Positions 3,167-42,486 of a stretch of DNA of 64,000 nt are shown here, piece by piece. A program made the translations under genes and the position numbers. Where the stretch lies: positions 37,319 to 101,318 of the IMG/VR virus record IMGVR_UViG_3300031853_000004, one strand, 5' to 3'. The first letter of the stretch is position 1; each line of letters begins with the position of its first letter. The notes beneath the pieces were generated by a model that worked only from the letters and a program-made list of their open reading frames with translations, was not told the DNA's origin and did no database searches. This stretch comes from a virus. Its lineage: Duplodnaviria > Heunggongvirae > Uroviricota > Caudoviricetes.

Positions 3167-3364
3167 ATGCCTAATAATTGAAACAAACTTGAATATGATG
3201 AACAAGTTATGATTGTTGATGCGGCTAATAGACTAATGGGACTCTATATGATAAAGGATATAGTCGAGACTTTTAATAAAATAAATCTCCCTTTACTCTA
3301 TAGTCAACCAGGATTTCATGAAAGATTGAGCCCTGATACAGATAGTTGGAGAAGAAAGGATTAA
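3167..3364 (+). CDS. small hypothetical protein with in-frame TGA (MPNNWNKLEYDEQ...)
   Basis: GAGAAAGGAG RBS; absent from ORF track because of TGA at 3179-3181; TAA stop. Confidence 0.4.
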
Positions 3365-3365
3365 A

Positions 3366-3572
3366 ATGCGTAAACAAATTAAAATGCCTAATCTAATTGA
3401 AAACAAAAGTGTAGTGCGTTGGGGTGATAATGATTATCTTTATCATTGCGCTCTAGTATCGGAGAATGGAAAACATATTAAATATATCGTTTCTGCACTT
3501 CACGGTAACAAAGTCCGCATTATTCATGATAGAGATCGAAACAAAGTTACTCTAAAATATCATATGAATTAA
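3366..3572 (+). CDS. hypothetical protein
   Basis: ORF with AAGGA RBS. Confidence 0.4.
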   Translation: MRKQIKMPNLIENKSVVRWGDNDYLYHCALVSENGKHIKYIVSALHGNKVRIIHDRDRNKVTLKYHMN

Positions 3573-3573
3573 T

Positions 3574-3903
3574 ATGGATTATGTTGTAATAATTCCTTTT
3601 GCACATACGGAAGATGTTGATAGATTTGCAAGAGAACATAATGTTAAGAAATATACTGGTATGTATCTTCCTGCAAGAGGAATAGACTGTCCTAAAAAGT
3701 TTCTGATAGTGATTGAAGAGATAGAAGAACAATTAATTTTTTCTACTATTGGAGGATATTATTTTAAAGATTTGAATAGTCTAAATTCTTTTAGGAAAAT
3801 AGCCTTTAAAAATAAAGTTTCTGTCTATTGGAAACTTACTAATGGAGATTATATATTATTTGATGCTAATATAAAAGAGCCATTAGGAATACATAGAATT
3901 TAA
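3574..3903 (+). CDS. hypothetical protein
   Basis: ORF immediately following previous stop. Confidence 0.4.
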   Translation: MDYVVIIPFAHTEDVDRFAREHNVKKYTGMYLPARGIDCPKKFLIVIEEIEEQLIFSTIGGYYFKDLNSLNSFRKIAFKNKVSVYWKLTNGDYILFDANIKEPLGIHRI

Positions 3904-3908
3904 TTTTA

Positions 3909-3948
3909 AAGCTTGTTGATACTTTGTATTGACAAGCTTTATTTTTTA
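3909..3948 (+). terminator. intrinsic terminator hairpin (AAAGCTTGT...ACAAGCTTT + T-run) whose 3' arm contains the next -35 box
   Basis: 9-bp inverted repeat followed by ATTTTTT. Confidence 0.45.
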
Positions 3949-3957
3949 TGCTATAAT
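3929..3957 (+). promoter_or_regulatory. TTGACA-N17-TATAAT promoter
   Basis: Exact hexamers with 17-nt spacer. Confidence 0.5.
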
Positions 3958-3990
3958 TATATAAATGATAAAGAAAGTAGGTGAATTTAA

Positions 3991-5883
3991 TTGTCTAATA
4001 ATTTATATAATGAAGATAGTATTCAATCTTTAAGTCCGTTAGAACACGTTCGTACTAGGCCATCAATGTATATCGGAGCTACAGATACTCCGTATCAATT
4101 AGTTATTGAAATTTTAAGCAATGCAATTGATGAATACCGTATTGGTAACGGAAAAGTTATCATCTTAGATATTACAGATGATGGAAGAATTTCTTGTCAA
4201 GATGAAGCTCAAGGATTTATTGTTGATTCTTACAGAGAAGATGGTAAATCTATTCTGCAAGCGTCATTTGATACTCTAAATACATCAGGAAAATTTTCAT
4301 CAGATGGCGTGTATGAAGGTTCAGCGCTTGGTTTGCACGGCCAAGGATCGAAAATCGCGAACTTCTTATCACATGAGATGATAGTAGAATCTACAAGAGA
4401 TGGTATTAAAGAGACTGTCTTTTTTAAAGAAGGCGAATTTCAAGGAAGAATTGTAGAAAATGTAACGGCTCATTCTGGGACTAGAGTAACTTTCAAACCA
4501 AGTGAAGAATTTTTTACATCAACAAAAATTGATATTAAAAAATTAAAGAATTTTTGTGATGATATTACTTGTTTATGCGAAGGATTAGCAATTGTTGTTA
4601 ATGGAGATTGTTTAGAACATAAAAATGGTATTCAAGATTTACTTGAAAAAAATTTAAGTGATATAGAAATTATTGATAATCGTTTTATCTTCCAAAAGAA
4701 GAAAGATAAACAATCACTTAAAGTTGCTATGACATATAGCGGTAAAAATAGTTCTACAATTATTCCATATGTTAATTGCGGAATTACTACAGCAGGCCCG
4801 CACATCACATCTATTAAGTCAACTATCACAAGAATTTTAAATAAATGGGCTAAAGAGCAAGGTATCTTAAAGTCCAAAGATAAAAATCTTGATGGAAATT
4901 CTTTACAAGAAGGTATGATTTTTATTGCAGATATTACCGCAGATGAAGTAGCATATAATGCTCAGATTAAAGATCACGTTGCAAAAATAGACACTTCTTT
5001 TATTTCTTCTACTCTTGGAGAGCAGTTAGAAATTTGGCTTGATAATAATCCTGATGATGGAAAAGCTATTATTGAAAAAGCATTAGTTTCTAGAAAGGCT
5101 GCGGAAGCTGCTAAACGTGCTCGTGAAAGAGTTAGAAATAAAGCTGCGGCTAATACTAAAAAGAAAAATATTCAACTTCCTACTACTCTTACAGACTGTT
5201 GGAGTAAAGATAGGTTATCTTGTGAATTACTTGTATCAGAAGGTAAGTCAGCCGCGAGCGGTCTAGTGGCTGCTAGAGATTCAGAGACACAGGCTGTATA
5301 TGGTGTTCGTGGCAAAATGTTATCAGTGTTAAAAACTTCACCTGCTAATATTTATAAAAATCAAGAAATTAATAATCTTGTTCAAGCTCTTGGACTTGAA
5401 GTTGAGCCTTCTACATGTAAATTAAAGTATGACAAATCAAAATTACGTTACGGAAAAATAATAGCATGTGCTGATGCAGATTTTGATGGATTTGCTATAG
5501 AAAATCTTTTGTTTAATATTTTATGGTATATGTGTCCAGAACTAATTTTAAATGGACATGTTTATTCTGCGGTTCCTCCGTTATTTCGAGTAACTACAAA
5601 AAAGAATGAATATGTATATCTTAAAGATGAAAAAGCATTAGAAGAATATAAAAAACAAAATCCAAACAATATCCAAACTATTGGTAGAATGAAAGGCTTG
5701 GGTGAGTGCGATTCTGACGAGCTTGCCTATTGTCTACTTGACAAAAAGACTAGAAATGTGTTACAATTAAAAGTAACAGATAGAGATAAAACAGATGAAA
5801 TGTTTAATAATCTTTATGGTAAGGCAGTTGGTCCAAGAGTAACATTCTTGGCAGAACATTTAGAGGAGGCGCGTGTTGAGTAG
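3991..5883 (+). CDS. type IIA DNA topoisomerase ATPase/TOPRIM subunit (GyrB/T4 gp39-like)
   Basis: LEHVRTRPSMYIG, GyrB-like ATPase lid, SEGKSAASG, GVRGKMLSV motifs; TTG start after GGTG RBS. Confidence 0.7.
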   Translation: MSNNLYNEDSIQSLSPLEHVRTRPSMYIGATDTPYQLVIEILSNAIDEYRIGNGKVIILDITDDGRISCQDEAQGFIVDSYREDGKSILQASFDTLNTSGKFSSDGVYEGSALGLHGQGSKIANFLSHEMIVESTRDGIKETVFFKEGEFQGRIVENVTAHSGTRVTFKPSEEFFTSTKIDIKKLKNFCDDITCLCEGLAIVVNGDCLEHKNGIQDLLEKNLSDIEIIDNRFIFQKKKDKQSLKVAMTYSGKNSSTIIPYVNCGITTAGPHITSIKSTITRILNKWAKEQGILKSKDKNLDGNSLQEGMIFIADITADEVAYNAQIKDHVAKIDTSFISSTLGEQLEIWLDNNPDDGKAIIEKALVSRKAAEAAKRARERVRNKAAANTKKKNIQLPTTLTDCWSKDRLSCELLVSEGKSAASGLVAARDSETQAVYGVRGKMLSVLKTSPANIYKNQEINNLVQALGLEVEPSTCKLKYDKSKLRYGKIIACADADFDGFAIENLLFNILWYMCPELILNGHVYSAVPPLFRVTTKKNEYVYLKDEKALEEYKKQNPNNIQTIGRMKGLGECDSDELAYCLLDKKTRNVLQLKVTDRDKTDEMFNNLYGKAVGPRVTFLAEHLEEARVE

Positions 5884-16136: not shown

Positions 16137-16227
16137 GGAGTATTGGCCGAGTGGTTGAAGGCAACTGCCTAGAAAGCAGTAGAATGATAATCGCGTTCCG
16201 GAAGTTCAAATCTTTCATGCTCCGCCA
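16137..16227 (+). tRNA. tRNA-Ser (type II, long variable arm, G73), anticodon read as AGA
   Basis: Cloverleaf folds by hand: acceptor GGAGTAT/ATGCTCC, D-arm GCC-GAGTGGTTGAA-GGC (near-identical to E. coli tRNA-Ser), anticodon stem ACTGC/GCAGT with loop CTAGAAA, long variable arm, T-loop TTCAAAT, encoded CCA. Confidence 0.75.
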
Positions 16228-31547: not shown

Positions 31548-32456
31548 ATGAATCCTGTTTCTGTTGCGGTACTTTTTTTTGGAATAATAATAATTGTATT
31601 ACTTTTTATAATAAATTTTAATAAAATTTATAAAATCATTGGAGCAATTTTAGGTACTTTATTAATTTTATTATCTTTTTGCATATATACGCAAGACGTA
31701 GGTGAAGTTGTAGTATTAAGAAATCTGGGAGGAGAACTTGCGGGGTATACAGAAGCTGCTGGTTTTCATATAAAGACGCCTTGGCAAAATACAATTGAAT
31801 ATGATGTAAGAAATAACATTATTAATTTATATAGAGAAGATGAATACAGTTATGATAATGGAAAGGCATCTGGTTCAGAGGTAACAGTATATGATAAATC
31901 TGGAGCTCAAGCAAACGTAGATGTTCAAGTTATTTATAGTTTGGATGCGGATGCTGCTATAGAGTTATATACTAAATATCAAGAACAATCTAACTTTGTA
32001 CAAATTGTAGCGGTGAATAATGTACGAGACGCTGCAAGAAATGTTTCAGGTCAATTTTCAACCATTCAAATGCTAACAAGTAGAGAAGATTATGCAAAAG
32101 CAATCTATGATAAATTAGTAAAAGATTGGGATGAACTTGGACTTCATGTTGAAGAAGTTAATGTTCAAGATATTAGATATAATCAAGAAATTATTGGTGC
32201 ATATAATTCAGCTCAGAAAACAGAAATTAGCAAAGTTGAAGCACAAAATCAGCAAGAAGCTGAAAAAATTAAAATGGATACAGAGGTAATGAAAGCTCAG
32301 AAAGAAGCTGAAGCTAATGAAATTAGATCAAAATCATTAACTCCAGAAATTCTTGAACAACAATATATTGATGCTTTAAAAAATGGACAAAATGTTTATG
32401 TTGTACCAGAAAATAGTATGCCTTTAATTAATTTACAACAAGAAACAAAAGAGTAA
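31548..32456 (+). CDS. SPFH/band-7 (stomatin/prohibitin-like) membrane protein
   Basis: N-terminal TM helix, SPFH-like core, C-terminal coiled coil. Confidence 0.55.
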   Translation: MNPVSVAVLFFGIIIIVLLFIINFNKIYKIIGAILGTLLILLSFCIYTQDVGEVVVLRNLGGELAGYTEAAGFHIKTPWQNTIEYDVRNNIINLYREDEYSYDNGKASGSEVTVYDKSGAQANVDVQVIYSLDADAAIELYTKYQEQSNFVQIVAVNNVRDAARNVSGQFSTIQMLTSREDYAKAIYDKLVKDWDELGLHVEEVNVQDIRYNQEIIGAYNSAQKTEISKVEAQNQQEAEKIKMDTEVMKAQKEAEANEIRSKSLTPEILEQQYIDALKNGQNVYVVPENSMPLINLQQETKE

Positions 32457-32463
32457 GATAAAA

Positions 32464-32500
32464 AGCTGCGAACAAAAAAAAATGTTCGTAGCTTTTTTTA
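32464..32500. terminator. bidirectional rho-independent terminator (A-run, 11-bp stem, T-run)
   Basis: AGCTGCGAACA-A9-TGTTCGTAGCT flanked by A and T tracts. Confidence 0.55.
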
Positions 32501-32507
32501 TTTTAAT

Positions 32508-32517
32508 ATTCGGTGGA
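32508..32517 (+). repeat. cassette-boundary repeat copy 1 (TATTCGGTGG)
   Basis: Exact 10-mer; heads segment 1 in x-S-V frame. Confidence 0.6.
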
Positions 32518-32810
32518 AAATGTGGTGACTCCAACAAGCGGTGTCAAATTCATACAACTTGGACGACTTGTTGTTATATCACTTGACCTGGTTGTTTCTG
32601 GCGTGACGGGCTTAGGAGCGCCACCAGCATTAGCACAGTTTCCTTTCATAGCAAGAAATAGCTCCACTGGTGATATGGCTGCGTTTTGGGTTAATAATAC
32701 TTCTGATGGAAAACTCACTCTGCAAGTTTATAAGGCTACTGGGTATACGCAAGGCGGAACCTATGCCGCCAGCTTTGCATATATGACAAGTAGTTCGTCT
32801 CTGTGATTTG

Positions 32811-32820
32811 TATTCGGTGG
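32811..32820 (+). repeat. cassette-boundary repeat copy 2 (TATTCGGTGG)
   Basis: Exact 10-mer inside the 3' end of segment 1 in another frame. Confidence 0.6.
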
Positions 32821-33164
32821 GCAACGTCAATAGTGATATTGCACCATTAGGAACCACAGTATACAATTTAAGAAATACCTCTCAAAAAGATACATTAGTC
32901 GGTCGCGGAACTTTACTTACTAATGCAAATATGAATGATTATAAAATTCCTGGGATGTATACTTTATCAGCGAAGAATTATACAGCTTCTCCTTCTGGAG
33001 TTAACACTCAGTGAGGATTATTTATTATTTTTAGAGCTGCTGAATCTGGAAGTACACAACAAGTAATTATAGGAACAAGCGCTGAACCTCAGACTATTTA
33101 TTTTAGAAGATATGGAGGAGCTGTTTGAGGCTCTTGAATGAAAATAAGTGGGCAATTGGTTTAA
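32811..33164 (+). other. cassette segment 2 (three TGA)
   Basis: Open in S-V frame from repeat to TAA 33162-33164. Confidence 0.45.
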
Positions 33165-33435
33165 ACTAATTATGCTGTTGTTGTAATTTTATTTTAATAA
33201 CTTCAACTGATTGGACTTCCGCTGTAAGATTGAAAATACATTTTAACATTAACGGCGTAGTAATGCCTGTTCTTATATTAAAAAATAAGAAAATTGTCTC
33301 TGAATTTGGAAAAGTTATATTAAAAATTATAATATTATCAGACACAAATTATAAGAGATTTTGCTTTAAAATCCATGTTATTTATTAAATTCCATCAAAT
33401 ATTAAAAATATTTCATTGGAATTAAAAAATAAAAT

Positions 33436-33460
33436 TTGACAACCAATTAGTTTTATATTA
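33436..33460 (+). promoter_or_regulatory. TTGACA with weak -10 (TATATT)
   Basis: -35 exact, short spacer. Confidence 0.3.
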
Positions 33461-33515
33461 AAATTTAATTAATAAAAGAAAAAGAAAAAAATTTTAGTAG
33501 AAAGAAGGTTGTCAA

Positions 33516-34367
33516 ATGTCTGAAAAAATGACAGTCCAAGAGTTCCATGATGAAATTTGGTGGCCACGTTGTTTAAAAAATTTAAGAGAATGTACGCAAG
33601 TAGGATATGATAGTGCATATAGACTACATATTGCCCCTTTTATGAAAGATAAATATCTTACTGAAATTACTCCTAGATATTTAGACCATTGGTTTAAAGA
33701 AGGTAATATTAAAGCTTCTACTTGGAAAATTTTCAAAGCAATGATTAGAGTGGCATATAAACTTGAATTAATTCCTACTGATCCGTGTGATAAGGTTCTA
33801 GATGCTCCTCCAAGAGGGACACCAAATCCTCCAACTCTAAATAGAATTGAGATGCAACAAATGTTAGATGGTCTTACTGATGTTCCATATTACGCGGCAA
33901 TTGTTTGTTCTGCAACGATGGGACTTCGTAGAGAAGAATCTTGCGGACTTCGTTGGGAAGATTTTAATTGGAGAACTAATGTTGTCCATATTCAGAGAGG
34001 TATGCAATTTGTAAATGGGCATATTGTTGTTGGCCCTACAAAGACTGTTATGAGTAATCGCAAATTACCAATGCCGCAAGATTGTATCGTTAGACTTTTA
34101 CCTATTAGAAAAGAAGAAGGATATATCATTGGTGATTTAAATCCTTCTCAAGTAGCTGGAAGATATAGAAGAGCTTGCATTTCTAGAGGACTTCCATATG
34201 TTCCCATGTCTAATCTACGGACCTCTTGGTGCACAATGTTAATTGGAGAAGGAGTTCCAGTTAGTAAAGTTAGTAGATATATGGGTCATACAGATGTTTC
34301 TACCACTGTTAGATGGTATACTAAACCTAGAGAAGATGAATTAATTGATGTTGCTGCATCTTTTTAA
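33516..34367 (+). CDS. tyrosine site-specific recombinase (Xer/Rci/integrase family)
   Basis: GLRREE (Arg I), NLRTSWCT (box II), SRYMGHTDVSTTVRWY (catalytic Tyr); no TGA; GAAAGAAGG RBS. Confidence 0.7.
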   Translation: MSEKMTVQEFHDEIWWPRCLKNLRECTQVGYDSAYRLHIAPFMKDKYLTEITPRYLDHWFKEGNIKASTWKIFKAMIRVAYKLELIPTDPCDKVLDAPPRGTPNPPTLNRIEMQQMLDGLTDVPYYAAIVCSATMGLRREESCGLRWEDFNWRTNVVHIQRGMQFVNGHIVVGPTKTVMSNRKLPMPQDCIVRLLPIRKEEGYIIGDLNPSQVAGRYRRACISRGLPYVPMSNLRTSWCTMLIGEGVPVSKVSRYMGHTDVSTTVRWYTKPREDELIDVAASF

Positions 34368-34387
34368 TAAAATTTAAATAAAAAAAG

Positions 34388-34425
34388 AACCCTACTTTCT
34401 TAATTGAAAGTAGGGTTTTATTTTT
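34388..34425. terminator. bidirectional terminator (GAACCCTACTTTC-loop-GAAAGTAGGGTT)
   Basis: 12-bp stem with A-run before and T-run after. Confidence 0.55.
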
Positions 34426-34427
34426 AT

Positions 34428-34700
34428 TTATATTCTTTTTATTTTTAATACTATATAACGAATATCAAATGTTGCATTATTAATTGTTGCCCCAGTATTC
34501 GGATTTGTAACAGTTAAAAATCATGCATTACTTTCTGCTGCTACTCACGCTTTAACAAAATAATTTTGACCTAATACAAATGGTGCTAAAATATATGTAT
34601 ATCCATCATTAGTTTCAGGTAAATATATATTTCCACTGTTACCAGTTGTAAAGTTTTCTGCTTTTCTATATACTTGAGATAAATTCATCGGAACCACCGA
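34428..34700 (-). other. cassette segment 3 (contains a possible independent GTG/ATG start; two TGA)
   Basis: Repeat GATTCGGTGG at 34691-34700 heads an ORF in the S-V frame to TAA 34428. Confidence 0.45.
34691..34700 (-). repeat. cassette-boundary repeat copy 3 (GATTCGGTGG)
   Basis: 9/10 match, inverted relative to copies 1-2. Confidence 0.55.
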
Positions 34701-34702
34701 AT

Positions 34703-34898
34703 CTTATTTGACCCAGATTTGTTTTGAACTATTTTCACCTTGCAGTTTTCTTCGTAGTTCAATAGTTGTATCTGAAAAATTTAGATAATAAGCTTTTGAG
34801 GTTTGAGGTGCTAAAAATTGTAGTTGTAATAAATCATCTGCACTGTTTACAACAAAAGCATATGTTCATCCTTCATATACAATTCTATCCACCGAATA
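34703..34898 (-). other. cassette segment 4 (one TGA)
   Basis: Repeat TATTCGGTGG at 34889-34898 then 64 codons to TAA, which directly abuts repeat 3. Confidence 0.45.
34889..34898 (-). repeat. cassette-boundary repeat copy 4 (TATTCGGTGG)
   Basis: Exact 10-mer, minus orientation. Confidence 0.6.
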
Positions 34899-34942
34899 TT
34901 AATTTCACCAGCTTTATTAAATTGGTAATCTTTACATTATCA

Positions 34943-35247
34943 TTATTCCGCACATGTATATGTAACAGAGCTGTCTACATACTGTATGTTAATTGTTGAG
35001 AAAAATTCAAAAAATGTAGTATGCACGCTAAAATACCCAATTACGGCAGTGCCTGAGAATAACGCTGATATTGCGTATGTACCATCGATAGGTTTTGCCC
35101 AACTAGGAACAATATCTCACAGTTTCTTTCCTGTATTCGCAGTTAAATCCTCCTTTGACCAAACAACGTTAATATTGACAATTCGTCCAAATCGCTGTAC
35201 GTGTATTGAATGTTCACTAATATTCTGCGATTTATATTCCACCGAAG
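34943..35247 (-). other. cassette segment 5 (one TGA)
   Basis: Degenerate repeat CCTTCGGTGG at 35238-35247 then about 100 codons to TAA. Confidence 0.4.
35238..35247 (-). repeat. cassette-boundary repeat copy 5 (CCTTCGGTGG, degenerate)
   Basis: 8/10 match, minus orientation, directly downstream of terminator. Confidence 0.4.
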
Positions 35248-35258
35248 GCTAAAAAAAT

Positions 35259-35295
35259 AAACCCCTTGACTTATCACTCAAGTCAAGGGGCTTTT
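35259..35295. terminator. bidirectional terminator (CCCCTTGACTT-loop-AAGTCAAGGGG) ending the minus-strand late unit
   Basis: 11-bp stem, A7 before and T6 after. Confidence 0.55.
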
Positions 35296-35697
35296 TTAAT
35301 TATCATTGGTAATTGTTAATGGTTCACTTGGTAAAGACATTATTTCTTCATACATTGCTTTACCTAAACCATTCCCTCCAAGTTTTGCATATGCAGTTTC
35401 AATTTTTTCTACATATTCTTTTGTAGTCGTTGAAGCATATTTATTTTGTTTAGCTTTTCTGTATTCAGAAATTAGCTCAGCTCTTAACATTGCTCGCATT
35501 CCGGCAGTCATTGAATCATGTCATTCAGTATCAAGTTCACGATTTTTTTTCTGTTCTTCACGTGCCTGTTCTCTTTTATTATCAAAGTCATCCAATTTTC
35601 TACCCATGCCTCTTTGCATTAAAAAGATAATCAGTGGCACTAAAAAGATTTCAAGCAAGTTAAGGACTGCGGTCACCGTTGAATCCAATGGTACCAC
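35296..35697 (-). CDS. membrane-anchored small protein (N-terminal TM; one TGA)
   Basis: AGGAAAGAGG RBS then GTG 35697; extends ORF 35296..35511 upstream through TGA 35521. Confidence 0.4.
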
Positions 35698-35713
35698 CTC
35701 TTTCCTTTCTTTT

Positions 35714-36124
35714 TTAATTTCTAAACATTTTTACTGAAAGTCTTGGGTTTGCTCCAAGATTAATCTCTGTAGTCCCGGTGTTTGTCAATAGAACAGTATC
35801 ACCATTTCCGCAACAACATGTTTTAACAAACGTAGAAGCGGAAACATTTTGTAAATCACCTGCTGCGGCAGTTACAACTGTACTATTTGTTTCAGGAAGA
35901 GGCGCACCATCTAAAGTAATACCAATAGTAGCGTCACCAGCAGCTGTCCCTCCAATATTACCATTAAAGGAAACTTCATAAACAACATTGTTTTGGTTTA
36001 GATTTATAGAACCAGAGTTGTTTCTATGACATTCTGTACAGCCGACATGTAAAATAACTGTATCAAAAACTGCTGATTGACCAGGAGCTAATGTTTGAGC
36101 AATTGAATTAGAGAGTTCAATCAT
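35714..36124 (-). CDS. hypothetical Cys-rich (CCC) protein
   Basis: ORF; no TGA. Confidence 0.45.
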   Translation of the reverse strand: MIELSNSIAQTLAPGQSAVFDTVILHVGCTECHRNNSGSINLNQNNVVYEVSFNGNIGGTAAGDATIGITLDGAPLPETNSTVVTAAAGDLQNVSASTFVKTCCCGNGDTVLLTNTGTTEINLGANPRLSVKMFRN

Positions 36125-36149
36125 TATAAGTCCTCCTATCTACTTTAAA

Positions 36150-36815
36150 TTAGAAATTGCAGCCGCACCCATTAGGACAGAAGGGATTTGGGCCAGCGTT
36201 ATAAGCAGTAGAATTAGGATAACGCACAACACCAGCTACCGCATTTTGAAGCTCTAACTGATTAATTCTATTTTGCATATCATCCATTCTATTGGAAGTA
36301 ATAGCATCAAGAATTCTTTGAGTTTGTTCAGTAGTATTAGCATTAATAGCCGCAGTATTCATAGCAGCATTGAAGTTAACACCATCAATAGCTCTTAAAG
36401 TATTACAACAGCATTCTTGCTGATTGGAAATTATCTGTTGATCTATTAAAGCAATTCCACTAATATCACGTTGAAGTTCATTATATTTATCATTAAAAGC
36501 ATTCATTAGATATTGAGTATTTTGATTAGCATTTTGCATACCTTGAAGAGAATTACTATTAATAGCTGCTAAAATTTCTCTTTCATTAGCCATAGAATTT
36601 TGATTATCAAAACCACGCTGAACTTCATTAGAAGTAGCTAAATTTTCATAACCAATAGCATTAGCGAAGCCATTTCCACCAAAACCAAAACCACCATTAG
36701 CAAGAATAAGTAGAGCAAAAATCCACATAAAGCCCATACCATTTCCCCAGCCATCTTCATTTCTTGCCATTAACGCAACATCACTTGCAGTGAGCCCACC
36801 ATTCATATCAGCCAT
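36150..36815 (-). CDS. membrane protein with Gly-rich TM segment and CCC/CGC motifs
   Basis: FMWIFALLILANGGFGFGG; no TGA. Confidence 0.45.
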   Translation of the reverse strand: MADMNGGLTASDVALMARNEDGWGNGMGFMWIFALLILANGGFGFGGNGFANAIGYENLATSNEVQRGFDNQNSMANEREILAAINSNSLQGMQNANQNTQYLMNAFNDKYNELQRDISGIALIDQQIISNQQECCCNTLRAIDGVNFNAAMNTAAINANTTEQTQRILDAITSNRMDDMQNRINQLELQNAVAGVVRYPNSTAYNAGPNPFCPNGCGCNF

Positions 36816-36834
36816 GATGTACCCCTCTCTTCTT

Positions 36835-37092
36835 TTATTTTAATTGGTTTAAAATAGTATTTGGATCTACTCCTTTTTGAGCAGCCAAATTATAGAAAGC
36901 AGTCTTAGCATCTCCACCATTTTGATTTATATAATTTACTATACCTTGAAAATTAGGATTATTTGTTAACATTTTTTCCATAGCTTCTGTTGGATTAGAA
37001 GAATTTTTTATCTGTTTCATTAAATCCAATAGAGAGTTAGAATGCGGAGCTACTGACTGCTTATTAAAAGAAGAAAAAATAGGATTACTCAT
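36835..37092 (-). CDS. hypothetical protein
   Basis: ORF with RBS. Confidence 0.4.
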   Translation of the reverse strand: MSNPIFSSFNKQSVAPHSNSLLDLMKQIKNSSNPTEAMEKMLTNNPNFQGIVNYINQNGGDAKTAFYNLAAQKGVDPNTILNQLK

Positions 37093-37519
37093 TCTTCATC
37101 ACCAAGTCTTCCATTAATTGTTTAAATTCATTGAACTCAGTCTTCGTTACAAAATCACTAACGTCCTGTGCTTGAGTTTGAATAATTTCTCTTTGCATTA
37201 AAGGAATTTCTTCAAATTTAAATGCTTTGGTCTCTGAATAACCTGAATCATCGCTTTGTTTAAAATAAAAAACAGGTCTGTTAGTATCCATTAAAATTAC
37301 TCTAGAGTTGGGTCCAACTTGATATGCCTGTGCGCTTTCAGGTCCCATAACCTCTAAAACATTATTAATTGGTTGTCTTTGATTTTGCATCTGCGGATTT
37401 TGCTGCATTTGAGGATAATTATTTCTTGACATTTGAGAATAACCGGAAGAATAATTATTCCCCACCCATAAGTTGTTAGCAGGTTGCGGCATTTGTCCCG
37501 CGAAAGAATTTTCATACAT
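37085..37519 (-). CDS. hypothetical Q/N-rich protein
   Basis: AGGAGG RBS. Confidence 0.45.
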   Translation of the reverse strand: MYENSFAGQMPQPANNLWVGNNYSSGYSQMSRNNYPQMQQNPQMQNQRQPINNVLEVMGPESAQAYQVGPNSRVILMDTNRPVFYFKQSDDSGYSETKAFKFEEIPLMQREIIQTQAQDVSDFVTKTEFNEFKQLMEDLVMKNE

Positions 37520-37547
37520 ATCTTTTCCTCCTTTTATCTCAAATTAT

Positions 37548-37805
37548 TTATTTTTCTATTAAATTTTTGAATGCTTCGTATGCACCAGTGGAAGCTAAAC
37601 CACTAGCCATACCTATCATTACTGTATTAAAATCAAAAGTGTGTAAACCCCACGCATTGAAAATTATTCCAAGAATAGCTACGATTAATGGGATAAAACG
37701 ATTGATTCTATCATCTGGATAAATGTTCTTTAAAATATATCCTATCATTAAACAAGCTATTACAATTATTGGAGAAATTAAACTAGTAAAAACTTCTAAA
37801 TCCAT
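37548..37805 (-). CDS. holin-like protein (two TM helices, 85 aa)
   Basis: Two hydrophobic helices and a charged C-terminus; GGAGAATAATT RBS. Confidence 0.4.
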   Translation of the reverse strand: MDLEVFTSLISPIIVIACLMIGYILKNIYPDDRINRFIPLIVAILGIIFNAWGLHTFDFNTVMIGMASGLASTGAYEAFKNLIEK

Positions 37806-37807
37806 AA

Positions 37808-37975
37808 TTATTCTCCTACAATGTAGCCTTCTTGAATTAGTTCTTCAATCATTTGTGCACGTTGACCCGCGGAAAGTTTAGGATATGAATCAAGAATATC
37901 CTCTATATTTTCACCTTTCTTTAGGCGAACGATTACAGCTTTTTTAATAATTTTGTAAGCAGTATTTGTAACCAT
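37808..37975 (-). CDS. hypothetical 55-aa protein
   Basis: ATG overlapping upstream TAG; not in ORF track (<60 aa). Confidence 0.3.
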   Translation of the reverse strand: MVTNTAYKIIKKAVIVRLKKGENIEDILDSYPKLSAGQRAQMIEELIQEGYIVGE

Positions 37976-37977
37976 AA

Positions 37978-38661
37978 CTACACCTCTTCTTCCTCGCCGC
38001 CAACTAGCTCCGCAAGCATAAGAAGTAGATCTTCGATTGTCTCTTGGGCTTCTGCTAATTTAGCAGGACCATTTGCCATAAACTCTCTATCCGCAAGTTC
38101 TTTTTCTGTAAAAAGAACATAACGATAGAAGATAGTTTGTTCATCATAAGCTGGAATAGCCTGTTGATCAACAACAGATGTAATTGTTTGTCCTGTTACA
38201 ATATGCACTTCTTCGCCGTCAAGATTTATATATTCAAAAATGCCTTTTTTGGCATCAATTACTCGAATATGTGGATCATCTTCAGACTCAGGAACATAAA
38301 TTTCACCATTAGAGAAGTCAAAAGATACAATCTTGTAGTGCCATTCTTCAGGCACTGAAGGATGATGTACTGTAAATACTTCTTTTCTTAAATATCCTAA
38401 ATCTAAATCAGGATTAAGAATTTCTTCATTGTTCTGATCTATAACAGGATATTCATAAGAAAATCCACTATTTTGAGTAACTTTATTTGAAATCTCTTCA
38501 TTGTTTTGATCTATAACAGAATCTTCATTTGAAATTTCTTCATCATCTTGATTTATAGCAGGGTCTTCGTTTGAAGTCTCTTCATTATTTTGATTTATAG
38601 TAGGATCTTCATAAGAAAATTCACTATCTTCAGTAACTTCATTTAAAATCTCTTCATCCAA
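37978..38661 (-). CDS. acidic protein with N-terminal Asp/Glu-rich repeats
   Basis: Repeated ..NEE(I/T)SNED.. units; TAG stop. Confidence 0.5.
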   Translation of the reverse strand: MDEEILNEVTEDSEFSYEDPTINQNNEETSNEDPAINQDDEEISNEDSVIDQNNEEISNKVTQNSGFSYEYPVIDQNNEEILNPDLDLGYLRKEVFTVHHPSVPEEWHYKIVSFDFSNGEIYVPESEDDPHIRVIDAKKGIFEYINLDGEEVHIVTGQTITSVVDQQAIPAYDEQTIFYRYVLFTEKELADREFMANGPAKLAEAQETIEDLLLMLAELVGGEEEEV

Positions 38662-38762
38662 TTCCTATACTCTCCTTTCTTTTTCCTAGTTTTACCAATA
38701 ATATTTAGAGAGTTTTCTTTTTTTGACCCTCTCTATTATTATATAAAAATTAGCTAAAGAAA

Positions 38763-38779
38763 ATTATAAAAAATTGCCC
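38763..38779 (-). promoter_or_regulatory. GGGCAA-N5-TATAAT motif promoter (minus strand)
   Basis: Minus strand reads TAGGGCAATTTTTTATAAT upstream of gene 37978..38661. Confidence 0.4.
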
Positions 38780-38892
38780 TAGAAATTTTTTAAAGAAGCT
38801 TAAAATTTTAAATTTTATTAACTTTTACATTGTCTCATGAGATCCTTTTGGATTGCTTATAATAAATCTATCTAATATAAAGACTTATGTTG

Positions 38893-39204
38893 TTATATAA
38901 ATTCATTAGTTGCATATATACATGTGCCACCCAACCAACCAGCTAAAGAGATGTCTCCATTAGCTCTAAGGGTTTTGTCGTTGGATAAAGAAAGTCCACG
39001 GTGATTATTTGAATTAGATACAGTGAAAAAGTTCTCGTCTTTCAATGGCGTAGGTATATTAGAAAATGTTGCGAGAACAGCACCATTGGTTGCGTTAGGA
39101 ATGGTTATTTGTACAGTAAAAATAACCAGATTTCCTATGCGAGTCCATTTGGTACCTGGACGCACAGTGACTCCAGATATTGCTGTATACGAAGGAGTCT
39201 TATA
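38893..39204 (-). CDS. fibre-tip-like ORF / cassette segment 7
   Basis: Same frame as segment 6, preceded by CCTTCG; GTG start 39163; TAA stop. Confidence 0.35.
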   Translation of the reverse strand, partial: YKTPSYTAISGVTVRPGTKWTRIGNLVIFTVQITIPNATNGAVLATFSNIPTPLKDENFFTVSNSNNHRGLSLSNDKTLRANGDISLAGWLGGTCIYATNEFI

Positions 39205-39387
39205 TTATAAACTATTCCAACCTGCAATATCCTTTTGACCTTTCCACTTTCCATCCATGTAAATATCAGCGACAAGTTTATTATCTGCTCTCAATGTAAA
39301 AAGCAGTATAACACCGTTACTAGCAGTAAAATGGGCACTAATCGGATTCGTTGTTGTGGAGGTGACACCAAACTTATCCACCGAATT
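39205..39387 (-). other. cassette segment 6 (NSVDKFGVTSTT...), begins at repeat copy 6
   Basis: Open in the S-V frame for 60 codons to TAA 39205-39207. Confidence 0.4.
39378..39387 (-). repeat. cassette-boundary repeat copy 6 (AATTCGGTGG)
   Basis: 9/10 match; its first nt pair is part of the TAA stop of the upstream fibre gene. Confidence 0.55.
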
Positions 39388-40075
39388 ATATTGATGCTAA
39401 ATAAGTTGCTTGTCCATACCAATGTCCTCAAACATTCCCGCAATATCAAGGCATAGCTTTCCCATCTGTGCCAAAATTTATATTAGCTAATACTGTATCA
39501 GCATTTCCATTTGCTAAAACAATAGTTCCACCGACTAAAGCTTTAGGAAAATTGGTTCCAATTACAGCTGTGTTATTAGATGAATATTTACTTTTAAAAT
39601 TAAAATCATAAGTAACTTGAACAATAGCATAACTATTACAGTTTTGTTTTCTTCAAGCAAGGGTAGCTCCACTACTAATATAACTACCATGCAAAGTTCC
39701 ATTTCCAGATGAGACCCCCATATTATAAGTAGTATTATTATCTTGTTGGGTAAAAGTAAATTTGCCACCAGAATATCTGGTAGCAGTAAAAGTAGTGCCT
39801 GAACGAGTAATACTTTTTATTGCATCTGGATATGTACTATTGTTATCCTGTTGAGTGAACGTAAAAGTTGTACCGTTAGCTCTAGTTGCCGTAAAAGTAG
39901 TTCCACTTCTTGTTATATTTTTTATACTATCAGAAGTAGAAGCTTTACTAGCCACCGAAGACTCTAAAGCTGTCACACGCGTATTGAGTGCCGATACTGC
40001 GGATAAGGTGTTAGCGTCTAATAAATCATAAGTTGTACCATTTACTGTTACTTGAGATATAGTATTATTTGCCAT
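39386..40075 (-). CDS. tail-fibre protein with internal 33-aa duplication (one TGA at 39653); candidate constant region of the cassette system
   Basis: AAAGGAG RBS; duplicated IK(N/S)ITRSGTTFTATR..FTFTQQDNN(S/T)TY; TAA stop overlaps repeat 6. Confidence 0.5.
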
Positions 40076-40164
40076 ATCTTATCTCCTTTCATTTTAATAT
40101 ACTTTTTATATTAAATAGAAGGAGACACAATGGTTCCTTCTATATCATTTTATTTCCTAAAGTC

Positions 40165-42486
40165 CTAAACAGGACTAACAACATTACTAAAACTTAAAAC
40201 ATAATCAGTGGTTCCCGCAGGTTGAGAAGTTGGTTGAATAGTATTAATAGATATTTCTGCTCTTGGAGCGCCAATATTAACTCTAACTTCTTCAGCAGTT
40301 GTACCACCAGTCCCTCCAAGAGAAATAGGTAAGATTCCAAATTGTGGTTCTATATTACTACCAGTAGAATAAAAGGCTCCTTTGGAACTGCTAATTTGTT
40401 TTAAGCCATTATCTTGATTACCAACTACAATAGCATTATTTACAAAACCTGTTTTCCCAGTACCACCTTGTTGAACTGGCAATGTGCCAAAATGCGGAGC
40501 ATCTGTTGAGTTAGTAGCATATAAAGCTCCTGAAATAGTTTCAATGCTACCAATGCTATTATTTTGACCTTGACCTAAAAGAATCTGATTTCTAGTGAAT
40601 CCAATTTGACCAGTTCCTCCAAGAGTAATAGGTAATACACTAACAGTTTTTACTGGATCAGTTCCATTGCCTAAAAGTATATTATCTAACGCAAATGAAG
40701 TTTGTCCGGTTCCACCTTTAGAAACCTGAACTGTTTGATTAGCAATATTATTTACATATGTTTCTGTTGCAAATTGATAATCTTTTTTAACAGTTAATAC
40801 TCTATTTACATAAGTTAAGTCAGAGACTGCATTTCCTGAACCAGATTGAATTATAGAAGCAATATTGCCATCTTGACCTTTAATATTGGTTAAAGAAAGA
40901 TTTAAAACTTTCTTACCATCTTCATCTGATCAACTCGCTGATCCAGTCGGGTCGGAAGATACATCACCAGGTGTTACAGTTAAATTAACTTCTGGTCTTA
41001 ATTGCGGCATCGGACCTTGAATGCCTTGTTCACCTTTGATCCCTTTAAAATCAAAATGTAACTTTTGTTTAGTATTATTATCATAAACTGATGGTGTTAT
41101 CGTAACTCTAGGATTACCTACTGTATTATCTACTGTCCCATCCGCGCTATCAATAACAACTCCCATATTTTTAAAATTAAAAGTTAAATTTTGTTTACGA
41201 GTATCAGATCCATCATCAATATTTTCTGTATCAATATTTACTTGCGGAACTCCATATTTTTTATCTATTGTAGCAGAATGTGTTCCAAAATCCATAGGCT
41301 TTCCCCGAGGTAAAGTAAAACTTAATTTAGGATGATCTAATTGTGTATTATCTATGCTAACTTCACCTGTTTGATTTCAAGGAATTATTGACACATTTTT
41401 TTCAACTACAAACTCTGGTTGAGTTGGAGACATATCAGTGATAAATATTAACCTATCATTTCCTAAAGATGAATCAATTAATTCTAATGGTCTGTAATAT
41501 AATTCACCATTAGTGGGATCAGATTGAGAAAGAATTAATAAAACAAAAGTACCTAGAGGAATTCCAGATGGATTTTCTTCATCTTCAACGATTTCTTCAT
41601 CTAAAGCCGCATACATCTCTTCTTTAGAGTTAAAAGTTCTTGAAATTCTAAAAGAATCTCCTTTATCTCCTTTTTCTCCTTGTGGAATAGTAACTATGTA
41701 AGTTGTCTTTTTGATAACCTCAGAATCTTCTTCATCGAATTCATCTATCTTTTCAACTTCTACGGAATTTCCTGATTTAAACTTAAAATCAACATTTGCG
41801 ACTTTGCCTTGAGCCCCTCGCGGTCCTACAGGTCCTATTCCACCTTGATCGCCTTGTTCTCCTTTAAAATTAGAAAAAACAAAATCAATATCTGTAGTAA
41901 AGAAATCTTCATCTTCTACAGTATCGCCCATAATGACTTCTACGTTAGGTTCTCCGCCGTCCTCTACCACGGTGGCCCGCACTTCTCCAATTTTACTATC
42001 TTTACCTCTTGGACCAATAGGGCCAACATTACCAGTTTTACCTTGAGGAATGTTTAAATATAATATTAATTTAAATTTATTATTTAAAGTTTCAACTATT
42101 TCTACTCTACTCTCTTGGATGGGGTCGTCACTCTCTACTGGAATAACCTCAACGCCTGCAATAGAATCTTCTGTTAAAACTTTTTTATTGTCAATTTTTA
42201 TATTTTTTAGAAAATTAAAATCATTTTCTGCATTTATCTTTACATCGCTATTACTAAATTTTTCAACAGTAATAGGAATTAATTTCTTTTTATCCTCCGC
42301 AGTCATCAATCCTGAATTTTCAGAAGTAGCTTCTGGAATTACAGGAGTAACTGTGTATCTATTATTATTTAAATCTACTTTTAAAGAAGCTATATTATTT
42401 TCTTGTAAAACAAAATAGATAGCTCCTTCTTCTATCGTCGCAGGTAATTCTGCAACGGAATGATAAAATTTTATATTATTTGCCAT
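40165..42486 (-). CDS. large tail-fibre protein with collagen-like Gly-X-Y stretches (773 aa, two TGA)
   Basis: GGAGG RBS; ORFs 41377..42486, 40930..41295, 40165..40482 in one frame; the 448-nt gap was translated by hand and has no stop; GPIGPRGKD and GEQGDQGGIGPVGPRGAQG. Confidence 0.55.

Follow-up and report, generated by a model that had tools for sequence, protein, structure and literature searches.

A probable Rin-type tail-fibre shufflon, with a tyrosine recombinase and a holin block between its inverted sites, in a large uncultivated phage

Introduction

Does a short repeat that overlaps the stop codon of a phage tail-fibre gene mark the point at which alternative fibre tips are joined to a constant part, and if it does, how is the reading frame restored across the stop? 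The question arises at one locus of the 64,000-nucleotide stretch analysed here (the window; 31% G+C), which comes from a low-GC contig of at least 143 kb. An earlier note on this DNA had placed the sixth copy of a repeat at the fibre stop codon, with the downstream cassette offset by +1, and had proposed that the tip is reached by reinitiation at a GTG, by a +1 frameshift, or that the assembly carries a 1-nt error. We find instead that the region at 32.5–40.1 kb is very probably a Rin-type tyrosine-recombinase shufflon, in which a 41-residue constant part is joined to swappable tips at a further copy, core G, inside the fibre gene.

Results

Seven identical cores in a single phase

The 64-kb window contains seven exact copies of the 8-mer core TTCGGTGG, where 0.45 are expected, and this count was reached in 0 of 100 shuffles of the window (Table 1). 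All exact cores are confined to 32.5–40.0 kb, the rest of the 64 kb having none, with A and B on the plus strand and C to G on the minus strand. At 7/7 cores the phase is the same (T-TCG-GTG-G), and 59–190 open codons lie behind each; by comparison, 59 codons are open from just 17% of positions and frames drawn at random in the region. Across 24 distinct sites from eight loci the consensus extends to TAATA-TTCGGTGG-nTAA, core and flanks together measuring about 17 bp, with TAATATTCGGTGGATAA as the flanked form of the site. The flank ahead of core G on the constant side is GCTTTAGAGTC, and the right flanks of cores A and B are AAAATGTGG and GCAACGTC, respectively. No core has a Shine-Dalgarno sequence upstream, whereas the real genes of the region have AAAGGAG, and cores A and E sit right behind terminators with no promoter-like site called in between. 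One-mismatch variants of the core at 31.5–40.5 kb were also considered as sites and were rejected, there being no open cassette behind any of them.

Table 1. Position, strand and properties of the features of the shufflon locus in the window.
Feature	Position	Strand	Properties
Band_7 gene terminator	32460..32497	+	directly upstream of core A; kept in L041 up to the core
Core A	32509-32516	+	exact TTCGGTGG
Cassette A	32509..32833	+	silent; 98 codons to TGA 32804-32806 or 107 to TAG 32831-32833; inverted relative to C-G
Core B	32813-32820	+	exact TTCGGTGG
Cassette B	32813..33164	+	core B plus 116 codons; silent; four TGA read as Trp; inverted relative to C-G
Tyrosine recombinase, presumed invertase	33516-34367	+	283 aa; without arm-binding domain
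Terminator, bidirectional	34386..34419	.	serves both the recombinase gene and cassette C
Cassette C	34428..34701	-	core C plus 90 codons; silent
Core C	34694-34701	-	exact TTCGGTGG
Cassette D	34704..34896	-	core D plus 63 codons; silent; TAA 2 nt before core C
Core D	34889-34896	-	exact TTCGGTGG
Cassette E	34943..35246	-	core E plus 100 codons; silent
Core E	35239-35246	-	exact TTCGGTGG
Terminator hairpin, bidirectional	35259..35293	.	separates the late block from core E
Late block, eight genes	35296..38661	-	between expression site and silent store
Cassette F'	38893..39193	-	tip domain after decayed core TTCGTATA (39186-39193); phase as in exact cores
Cassette F, short	39205..39377	-	silent; 59 codons from the core's TCG (39384-39382, outside this part); TAA 39205-39207
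Core F	39378-39385	-	exact TTCGGTGG; the earlier note's sixth copy; 10-mer 39378-39387
Expressed cassette G	39386..39951	-	includes TAA 39386-39388; two 33-aa beta-hairpin modules and C-terminal head; three sense TGA
Core G	39952-39959	-	exact TTCGGTGG; seventh copy, within the fibre gene; expression (fusion) junction
Constant 5' part	39960..40075	-	codons 1-39, residues 40-41 coming from the core; RBS and ATG

The fusion point lies within the fibre gene

The fibre ORF extends on the minus strand from 40075 to 39386 and, when TGA is read as sense, encodes 229 aa ending ATA-TAA (...ASI). The good ribosome-binding site (RBS) and the duplicated 33-aa module that the earlier note had described were both recovered, the former as a strong RBS, AAAGGAGATAAGAT, ahead of the ATG at 40075, and the latter as a module of about 33 aa present twice, as IKNITRSGTTFTATRANGTTFTFTQQDNNSTY and IKSITRSGTTFTATRYSGGKFTFTQQDNNTTY. 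The gene itself, with its ASI-TAA end, was likewise found, but it exists just when three in-frame TGA are taken as sense codons; the standard bacterial code would end the ORF at 39653. The second of these TGA aligns with the W of P0034 and P0035 (PWYCG), and the fibre homologues to that extent support the assignment of TGA to Trp. P0033 is a recorded protein identical over all 229 aa, and the gene caller of its source thus likewise took TGA as sense there. Along the window, the minus-strand late genes at 35–64 kb are full of in-frame TGA, while the plus-strand genes up to 32.5 kb contain none, 21/21 ORFs of at least 120 aa there ending in TAA or TAG.

Core G spans fibre codons 39–42 (S39-S40-V41-A42), dividing the protein into a constant N-terminus of 41 aa (40075..39953) and an expressed tip of 188 aa. 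Residues 1–41 are common to ten proteins (the window fibre and nine more) up to ...ESSV, and their C-termini are unrelated. The shared start reads MANNTISQV.NGTTYDLLDANTLSAVS...ESSV; 22 alignment columns within residues 1–41 are invariant and 8 nearly invariant, with essentially none of either kind beyond. At the DNA level, the match to the relatives L046 (93%), L047 (84%) and L050 (88%) reaches core G, and other cassettes lie beyond it. Homology links the C-terminal domain of the expressed tip with the C-termini of P0034, P0035, P0036 and P0038, which share its end point (...TYISS, ...TYVSN and ...TITYIS in the homologues, ...ATYLASI in the fibre). Since tip and homologues stop at the same place, the 229-aa protein is complete, and this, together with the divergence of the ten proteins after residue 41, puts the fusion junction at the internal core. 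On the evidence of these alignments, the real in-frame fusion point is core G, a copy that the earlier note missed, and not the copy at the stop codon. Because all cassettes are in phase with the fibre at core G, no frameshift is needed.

Structurally, an AlphaFold model of the fibre (16 sequences, mean pLDDT 77) predicts an N-terminal hairpin, a helix at residues 21–46 within which the junction residues fall, beta-hairpin repeats and a beta-sandwich head. The best fold matches were the receptor-binding proteins (RBPs) of Listeria phage PSA (gp15) and of the lactococcal phages TP901-1 (ORF49) and p2, all with weak E-values of at least 4e-3. No Pfam domains were found in the fibre or in the window's cassettes, and no PHROGs match was found for the fibre.

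The repeat copy at the stop codon

The repeat at the fibre stop is present much as had been reported: the 10-mer AATTCGGTGG matches there on the minus strand with no mismatch, its opening bases are the stop's two A's, and core F starts at the base after the fibre TAA. It is not the last copy. The offset that had been noted downstream is also as claimed, an ORF with a GTG start (39381..39205, minus strand, 58 aa) lying in the +1 frame relative to the fibre with its GTG 4 nt past the stop. Cassette D of the window and the cassette that L050 expresses are similarly short, at about 60 codons. Beyond the 58-aa ORF come one TAA and 13 codons and then a 90-aa ORF in the same frame (39165..38893). The sequence RIGNLVIFTV of cassette F' resembles QLGRLVVISL of cassette A and RFGRIVNINV of cassette E, and cassette F', behind its decayed core, has probably been immobilised.

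L047, L050 and cassette D have 2 nt between stop and core, and the window fibre has 0 nt. The expressed cassettes end TAA-TA-TTCGGTGG in L047 and TAA-TA-TTCGGTGA in L050, the next cassette being in frame in both, and cassette D ends TAA-GA ahead of core C. As the spacing differs between relatives, so does the frame relation from one side of the stop to the other; the rule in these sequences is a stop and then the core of the next cassette, with a variable frame between the two. No conserved frame relation or signal of the kind that a programmed +1 frameshift or reinitiation would need was found at the stop, nor was any slippery or stimulatory motif seen on inspection around ATA-TAA-T. Core F is an ordinary second direct site, at the head of the silent cassette that comes next; its frame with respect to the fibre stop is meaningless.

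The silent store and the recombinase

Cassette A has its homologues among the C-terminal tips of longer fibres, for example P0154 (456 aa, 52% identity); the homology search with this cassette returned such tips and no protein fusing the constant part to cassette A. A search with the silent cassettes joined end to end gave no match above threshold, its list of candidates probably being saturated. The Band_7 terminator is the fixed left border of the shufflon, and the homology of L041 and L046 to the window starts at core E. Cassettes also occur in several databases as stand-alone proteins of 89–181 aa.

The recombinase gene has a promoter-like site at 33436–33464. Its product matches the Pfam domains Phage_integrase (4.4e-15, residues 113–272) and Phage_int_SAM_3 (4.5e-9, residues 13–61) and resembles XerA and XerD in its length and in how it aligns. 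Set against XerA (4a8e), the two conserved Arg, the Tyr and the His that precedes the nucleophile have counterparts in the recombinase, and the first His of HxxR is not conserved. NCBIfam returned just XerA, XerD and integron-type models, all far under their cut-offs. Two annotated phages gave the best matches, an uncultured siphovirus (36%) and Bifidobacterium phage PMBT6, whose 'integrase' is 33.7% identical over 97% of the length (E 6e-44); both genes lie among tail-fibre and small ORFs just ahead of the lysis genes. The PMBT6 gene adjoins three copies of TTCCGTAACCC (0.08 expected), which is one mismatch from the published rix site. Closer homologues of the recombinase, 83–91% identical, are found on metagenome contigs that also bear TTCGGTGG cores. 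The sole recombinase found at the locus is of the tyrosine type, and the locus does not qualify as a serine-invertase system. Loci L043, L044 and L045, with a 50%-identical recombinase, were dropped as an inversion comparison, their DNA being identical.

Outside these contigs, close relatives were scarce. A blastn search of 32400–40200 against annotated phage genomes gave no match; in IMG/VR, neither the exact junction and constant-part patterns nor any relatives of the recombinase or of the constant N-terminus were found, and GTDB genomes held no relative of the constant N-terminus. Forty IMG/VR loci with the fibre repeat module were rejected, having the module or structural genes alone in common, and TTCGGTGG occurs in those 40 loci by coincidence of coding, within a gene of another kind (SFGGTW).

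A large invertible span and its arrangement in relatives

With respect to G and F, the only inverted cores are A and B, and any switch of the expressed tip must therefore flip 6.6–7.4 kb, the span of an inversion between A or B and G or F, which holds the recombinase, cassettes C–E and the late block. The flip of about 6.5 kb that the earlier note had envisaged for the recombinase and a late block would be slightly larger, and it is supported by the relative L041, in which this unit is flipped with respect to the Band_7 flank. The recombinase lies between A/B and C–G, hence it is flipped by any A/B by C–G inversion. Included in the late block is a holin gene (37548–37805; phrog_1129, E 6.8e-20). 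Of the suggestion that block and recombinase each have their own promoter and terminator, the terminators flanking the block and the promoter-like site of the recombinase could be located.

The block also follows the fibre in five relatives (L050, L051–L053 and L055), in which the order is as in the window: constant part, cassette or cassettes, block, terminator and silent cassettes. In L041 (80–93% identical), recombinase and block are arranged relative to each other as in the window, in order and in orientation alike, but the Band_7 flank runs the other way; the homology is interrupted at core A (window 32515) and at core E (35239), and the Band_7 terminator is joined via TTCGGTGT to a Gp10_C-type tip (Pfam 1.3e-14), which is followed by the block. 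This arrangement supports inversion, being the product that would be expected from a crossover between the expression site and an A-type site, although, with L041 just 80–93% identical, the flip may instead be ancient and fixed. In L046, the flank with the block terminator is joined at a core to a cassette resembling G, and the constant part has a different cassette that abuts the recombinase terminator; one of the L046 joins is not at a core, and the contig may be chimeric.

Closer to the window, the Logan unitig L059 (SRR9036418, 99.95–100% identical) stops exactly on the final base of core B, and the unitig that follows begins 30 nt (k-1) earlier. This break, the one sign of inversion within a population, is no more than suggestive: it is as for an assembly-graph branch right after core B, but the second unitig ends in a gene from an unrelated cause. 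The ENA contig L060 (sample ERZ27256883) is 99.987% identical over 14.8 kb, collinear with the window and has the same fibre-stop junction, so that both long assemblies of the phage share one arrangement. Assemblies of relatives repeatedly end within the array.

Discussion

Assignment to the Rin class

Our reading of the locus as a Rin-type shufflon is drawn from the sites, their common phase, the constant/variable boundary, the family of the recombinase and the rearrangements in relatives that break at cores, all of which are documented above. The wider proposal of the earlier note, that a tail-fibre gene is subject to inversion at several sites with the help of a recombinase, is supported by the tyrosine recombinase domains, the cores and the breakpoints in relatives. 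Rin shufflons are known from the Bifidobacterium prophages Bb423phi1, Bl157phi1 and Bl30698phi1 (Mavrich et al. 2018, PMC6109161) and from Eggerthella lenta prophages (PMC8778435). Their layout comprises a tyrosine invertase, one site in the receptor-binding gene and a second direct site right after its 3' end, and inversions at this second site rearrange cassettes for later use (PMC6109161). The window has the same elements, namely a tyrosine recombinase that lacks an arm-binding domain, a short asymmetric repeat before every variable C-terminal cassette, a constant N-terminal RBP part, a site in the gene, a direct site after the 3' end and further inverted sites. Resemblance to the TP901-1 RBP head is common to both as well, as weak sequence similarity in Rin (PMC6109161) and as a weak fold match in the window.

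The two differ in their dimensions. The core is 8 bp long in the window (TTCGGTGG) and 11 bp in Rin (TTCCCTAACCC), the constant part 41 versus 168 aa, and the cassettes number 7–8 of 59–190 codons in the window versus about five of 95–100 residues in Rin. In the window the invertible DNA includes the recombinase gene, placed between two groups of cassettes, and in Rin this gene flanks the array, which is a difference of layout and not of mechanism. In the window only, a late block of 3.4 kb with a holin parts the expression site from the store. As for phage type, the window belongs to a low-GC contig with TGA-recoded late genes, whereas Rin belongs to temperate actinophages.

Other inversion systems are less close. 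In Min, Gin (Mu), Cin (P1) and Pin (e14), as is proposed for the window, inversion fuses a constant tail-fibre 5' part to alternative 3' parts. Gin, Cin, Pin and Min are serine invertases that act on sites of about 26 bp and use an enhancer with Fis, in contrast to the tyrosine recombinase of the window. Min, of plasmid-prophage p15B, has six crossover sites and many isomers (summarised in PMC6109161). The R64/IncI shufflon (Rci, sfx, pilV; PMC11852207) uses a tyrosine recombinase and asymmetric sites, so that inversions alone are known to occur, and it resembles the window in having several segments with alternative C-terminal ends for one gene. Its target is the conjugative pilus adhesin pilV with 19-bp sfx sites, and that of the window is a phage fibre with an RBP-like head and the site TTCGGTGG; the window is not of R64 type, being set apart by target, site and NCBIfam models. 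Finally, BV01-like Phocaeicola phages carry a tail-fibre shufflon of which all configurations have been seen in reads (preprint PMC13596623), with a recombinase beside a multi-cassette region that overlaps the distal end of the fibre gene, as in the window. Their directional 10-bp motif, TGGGAGAACT, at which inversions bring different stops, is unlike that of the window, and their array measures 1.7 kb, with three cassettes and no passenger genes inside.

Proposed mechanism

Mechanistically, we posit that whichever cassette lies behind core G would be expressed through the constant part, with the junction read S-S-V, and that the remaining cores, F, E, D and C as direct and A and B as inverted copies, would each open a silent tip in the same phase that has neither promoter nor RBS. 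The recombinase presumably catalyses the reaction and would invert the DNA between oppositely oriented cores, an activity that may be ongoing in this phage and that would be expected to affect host range. Inversion between G and A or between G and B would yield ...ALESSVENVV... or ...ALESSVGNVN..., and the fusion peptides to expect would be VTALESSVASK for the present state and ALESSVENVVTPTSGVK and ALESSVGNVNSDIAPLGTTVYNLR for the others. Inversions at F or at other sites would reorder the store, so that the direct cassettes could be brought into reach later on. A point against the scheme is that direct repeats make up five of the seven sites, and deletions between these would have to be avoided.

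Alternative readings

We consider it extremely improbable that the copy at the stop codon is the junction between constant part and tip, with the tip reached by reinitiation at the GTG, by a +1 frameshift or only seemingly offset through a 1-nt assembly error. The geometry behind this idea (TAA, TTCG, GTG) and the 58-aa ORF in the +1 frame are real, and gene callers do start such cassettes at the GTG of the core (P0041–P0043); an in-phase core nevertheless lies inside the gene, the ten proteins part at residue 41 and not at the end of the 229 aa, and that protein has the same end point as its homologues. L047 and L050 differ in the frame across the stop, the GTG lacks a Shine-Dalgarno sequence, and no slippery or stimulatory motif was seen. 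None of the three devices is necessary, and they are contradicted by these observations and by the recurrence of the stop junction in the near-identical L060; the fusion point is core G, in phase with all cassettes.

It is also very improbable that the cassettes are independent small genes starting from the repeat's GTG, with the repeat serving as a start or N-terminal motif and not as a recombination site. Such genes would account for a GTG in the cassette frame at every core and for the stand-alone database entries of 89–181 aa, yet they would have no RBS, and two of the cores come right after terminators without a promoter-like site between. Against them speaks further that the motif also occurs inside the fibre ORF at the constant/variable boundary, that the homologues of cassette A are C-terminal domains of longer fibres, that the homology of relatives breaks at cores and that a dedicated tyrosine recombinase sits in mid-array. 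That the locus is a fossil, with remnant sites and cassettes in a now fixed arrangement and ancient differences between relatives, strikes us as unlikely. One arrangement in two long assemblies, the decayed core of F', the shortness of F and a recombinase without the usual first His of HxxR would suit a fossil; the seven cores, in contrast, are identical over 8 bp, the core is kept in relatives of 70–93% identity while the cassettes between are unrelated, the recombinase ORF is intact and 83–91% conserved in relatives, a unitig from a same-strain sample breaks at core B, and the assemblies of relatives repeatedly end inside the array. We therefore retain the Rin-type shufflon as the preferred reading.

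Implications

The locus is, in these terms, another case of the known Rin-type class, with features of its own in a very short constant part, an 8-bp core, 7–8 cassettes, a recombinase and a holin block in the invertible DNA, and TGA recoding. The apparent +1 offset is no recoding event and is not worth pursuing as one. In practical terms, gene calling breaks such loci up into numerous small orphan 'proteins', and assemblies are interrupted there. The one feature that might repay experiments is the invertible span, which is unusually large and includes the holin block and the recombinase. A speculative and on balance rather doubtful idea is that flipping these genes couples the choice of receptor to the transcriptional context of the lysis genes and of the invertase: each tip change would shift the lysis block from a position downstream of the late fibre operon to one downstream of the early/middle Band_7 operon, as is the case in L041, and such coupling, if true, would be a regulatory layer undescribed for Rin, Min or Gin systems. 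More broadly, a Rin-like tail-fibre shufflon beyond the temperate actinophages, in a large uncultivated phage, indicates that this host-range switching device is more widespread than has been described.

Proteins encoded beside and within the shufflon

The gene immediately upstream of the fibre gene encodes a 773-aa protein without a Pfam match, which contains collagen-like G-X-Y runs and, close to its C-terminus, at least four repeats of an L-P-x-x-x-G-G-T-G motif; it is probably a fibre or baseplate protein that serves as the attachment partner of the small variable protein. Two of the conserved late proteins carry cysteine clusters, CCCGNGD in the first and ECCCNT...CPNGCGCNF in the second, the latter also being glycine-rich and hydrophobic in its N-terminal part, and a homologue of a cysteine-cluster protein was found in the more distant locus L001. 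The acidic protein encoded by the first late-block gene had no family match and contains repeat motifs such as EEISNEDP.INQ, with tandem repeats of 72-84 nt at 38423-38657 of its gene. Upstream of this gene, a 230-nt stretch (38662-38892) is kept in two metagenome relatives of the locus (L041 and L050) and probably includes the promoter of the late block.

Features in and around the shufflon (window coordinates)
Feature	Position	Strand	Remark
773-aa protein gene	40165-42486	-	immediately upstream of fibre gene
In-frame TAA	39205-39207	-	between short cassette F and next tip domain
Decayed core TTCGTATA	39186-39193	-	at start of tip domain
Two conserved late proteins with cysteine clusters	35714-36815	-	function unassigned; inside invertible segment
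Acidic protein gene	37978-38661	-	first gene of late block

Possible cassette remnants and rearrangements in relatives

The tip domain behind the decayed core is complete (38893-39193) and seems to be an eighth cassette whose site for recombination has been lost. Among the metagenome relatives, L047 (1783-1910) contains a third core followed by a degenerate fragment similar to the constant part and then by a new start, ATG GCT AAT AAT ACA ATT TCA CAA GTT... (MANNTISQVTVNNE), with which this relative would encode the constant N-terminus a second time. In L046, the recombinase gene is broken ~285 nt before its 3' end and fused, away from any core, to the start of a cassette resembling that of core G (1347-1403), so that L046 is either a chimera or a genuine deletion derivative. 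L043, an 85-kb phage contig with a 50% identical recombinase, may carry a diversity-generating retroelement, since a reverse transcriptase gene (RVT_1, 3214-4413) lies 5.6 kb upstream of its recombinase gene.

Split genetic code and the end of cassette A

The genetic code is split across the window. In the early plus-strand genes (1-32456), TGA is absent both in frame and as a stop, and all 21 of the 21 long ORFs terminate in TAA or TAG; in the late minus-strand genes (35296-63770), a single gene can contain as many as 21 TGA codons in frame. Such usage resembles that of stop-codon-recoded gut phages (bioRxiv 10.1101/2021.08.26.457843). The sole tRNA in the 64-kb window is a tRNA-Ser(AGA) (16137-16227), and the window therefore encodes no suppressor tRNA. 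In cassette A, the TGA at 32804-32806 coincides with the C-terminal end of homologues (...SFAYMTSSSSL in cassette A versus ...SFAYLTNT and ...FSYIAK) and may serve as a stop there, although TGA is a sense codon elsewhere in this genome. Read as Trp, it would extend the ORF by nine codons, across core B and up to the TAG at 32831-32833, and every recombination at B would then alter the tail of cassette A.
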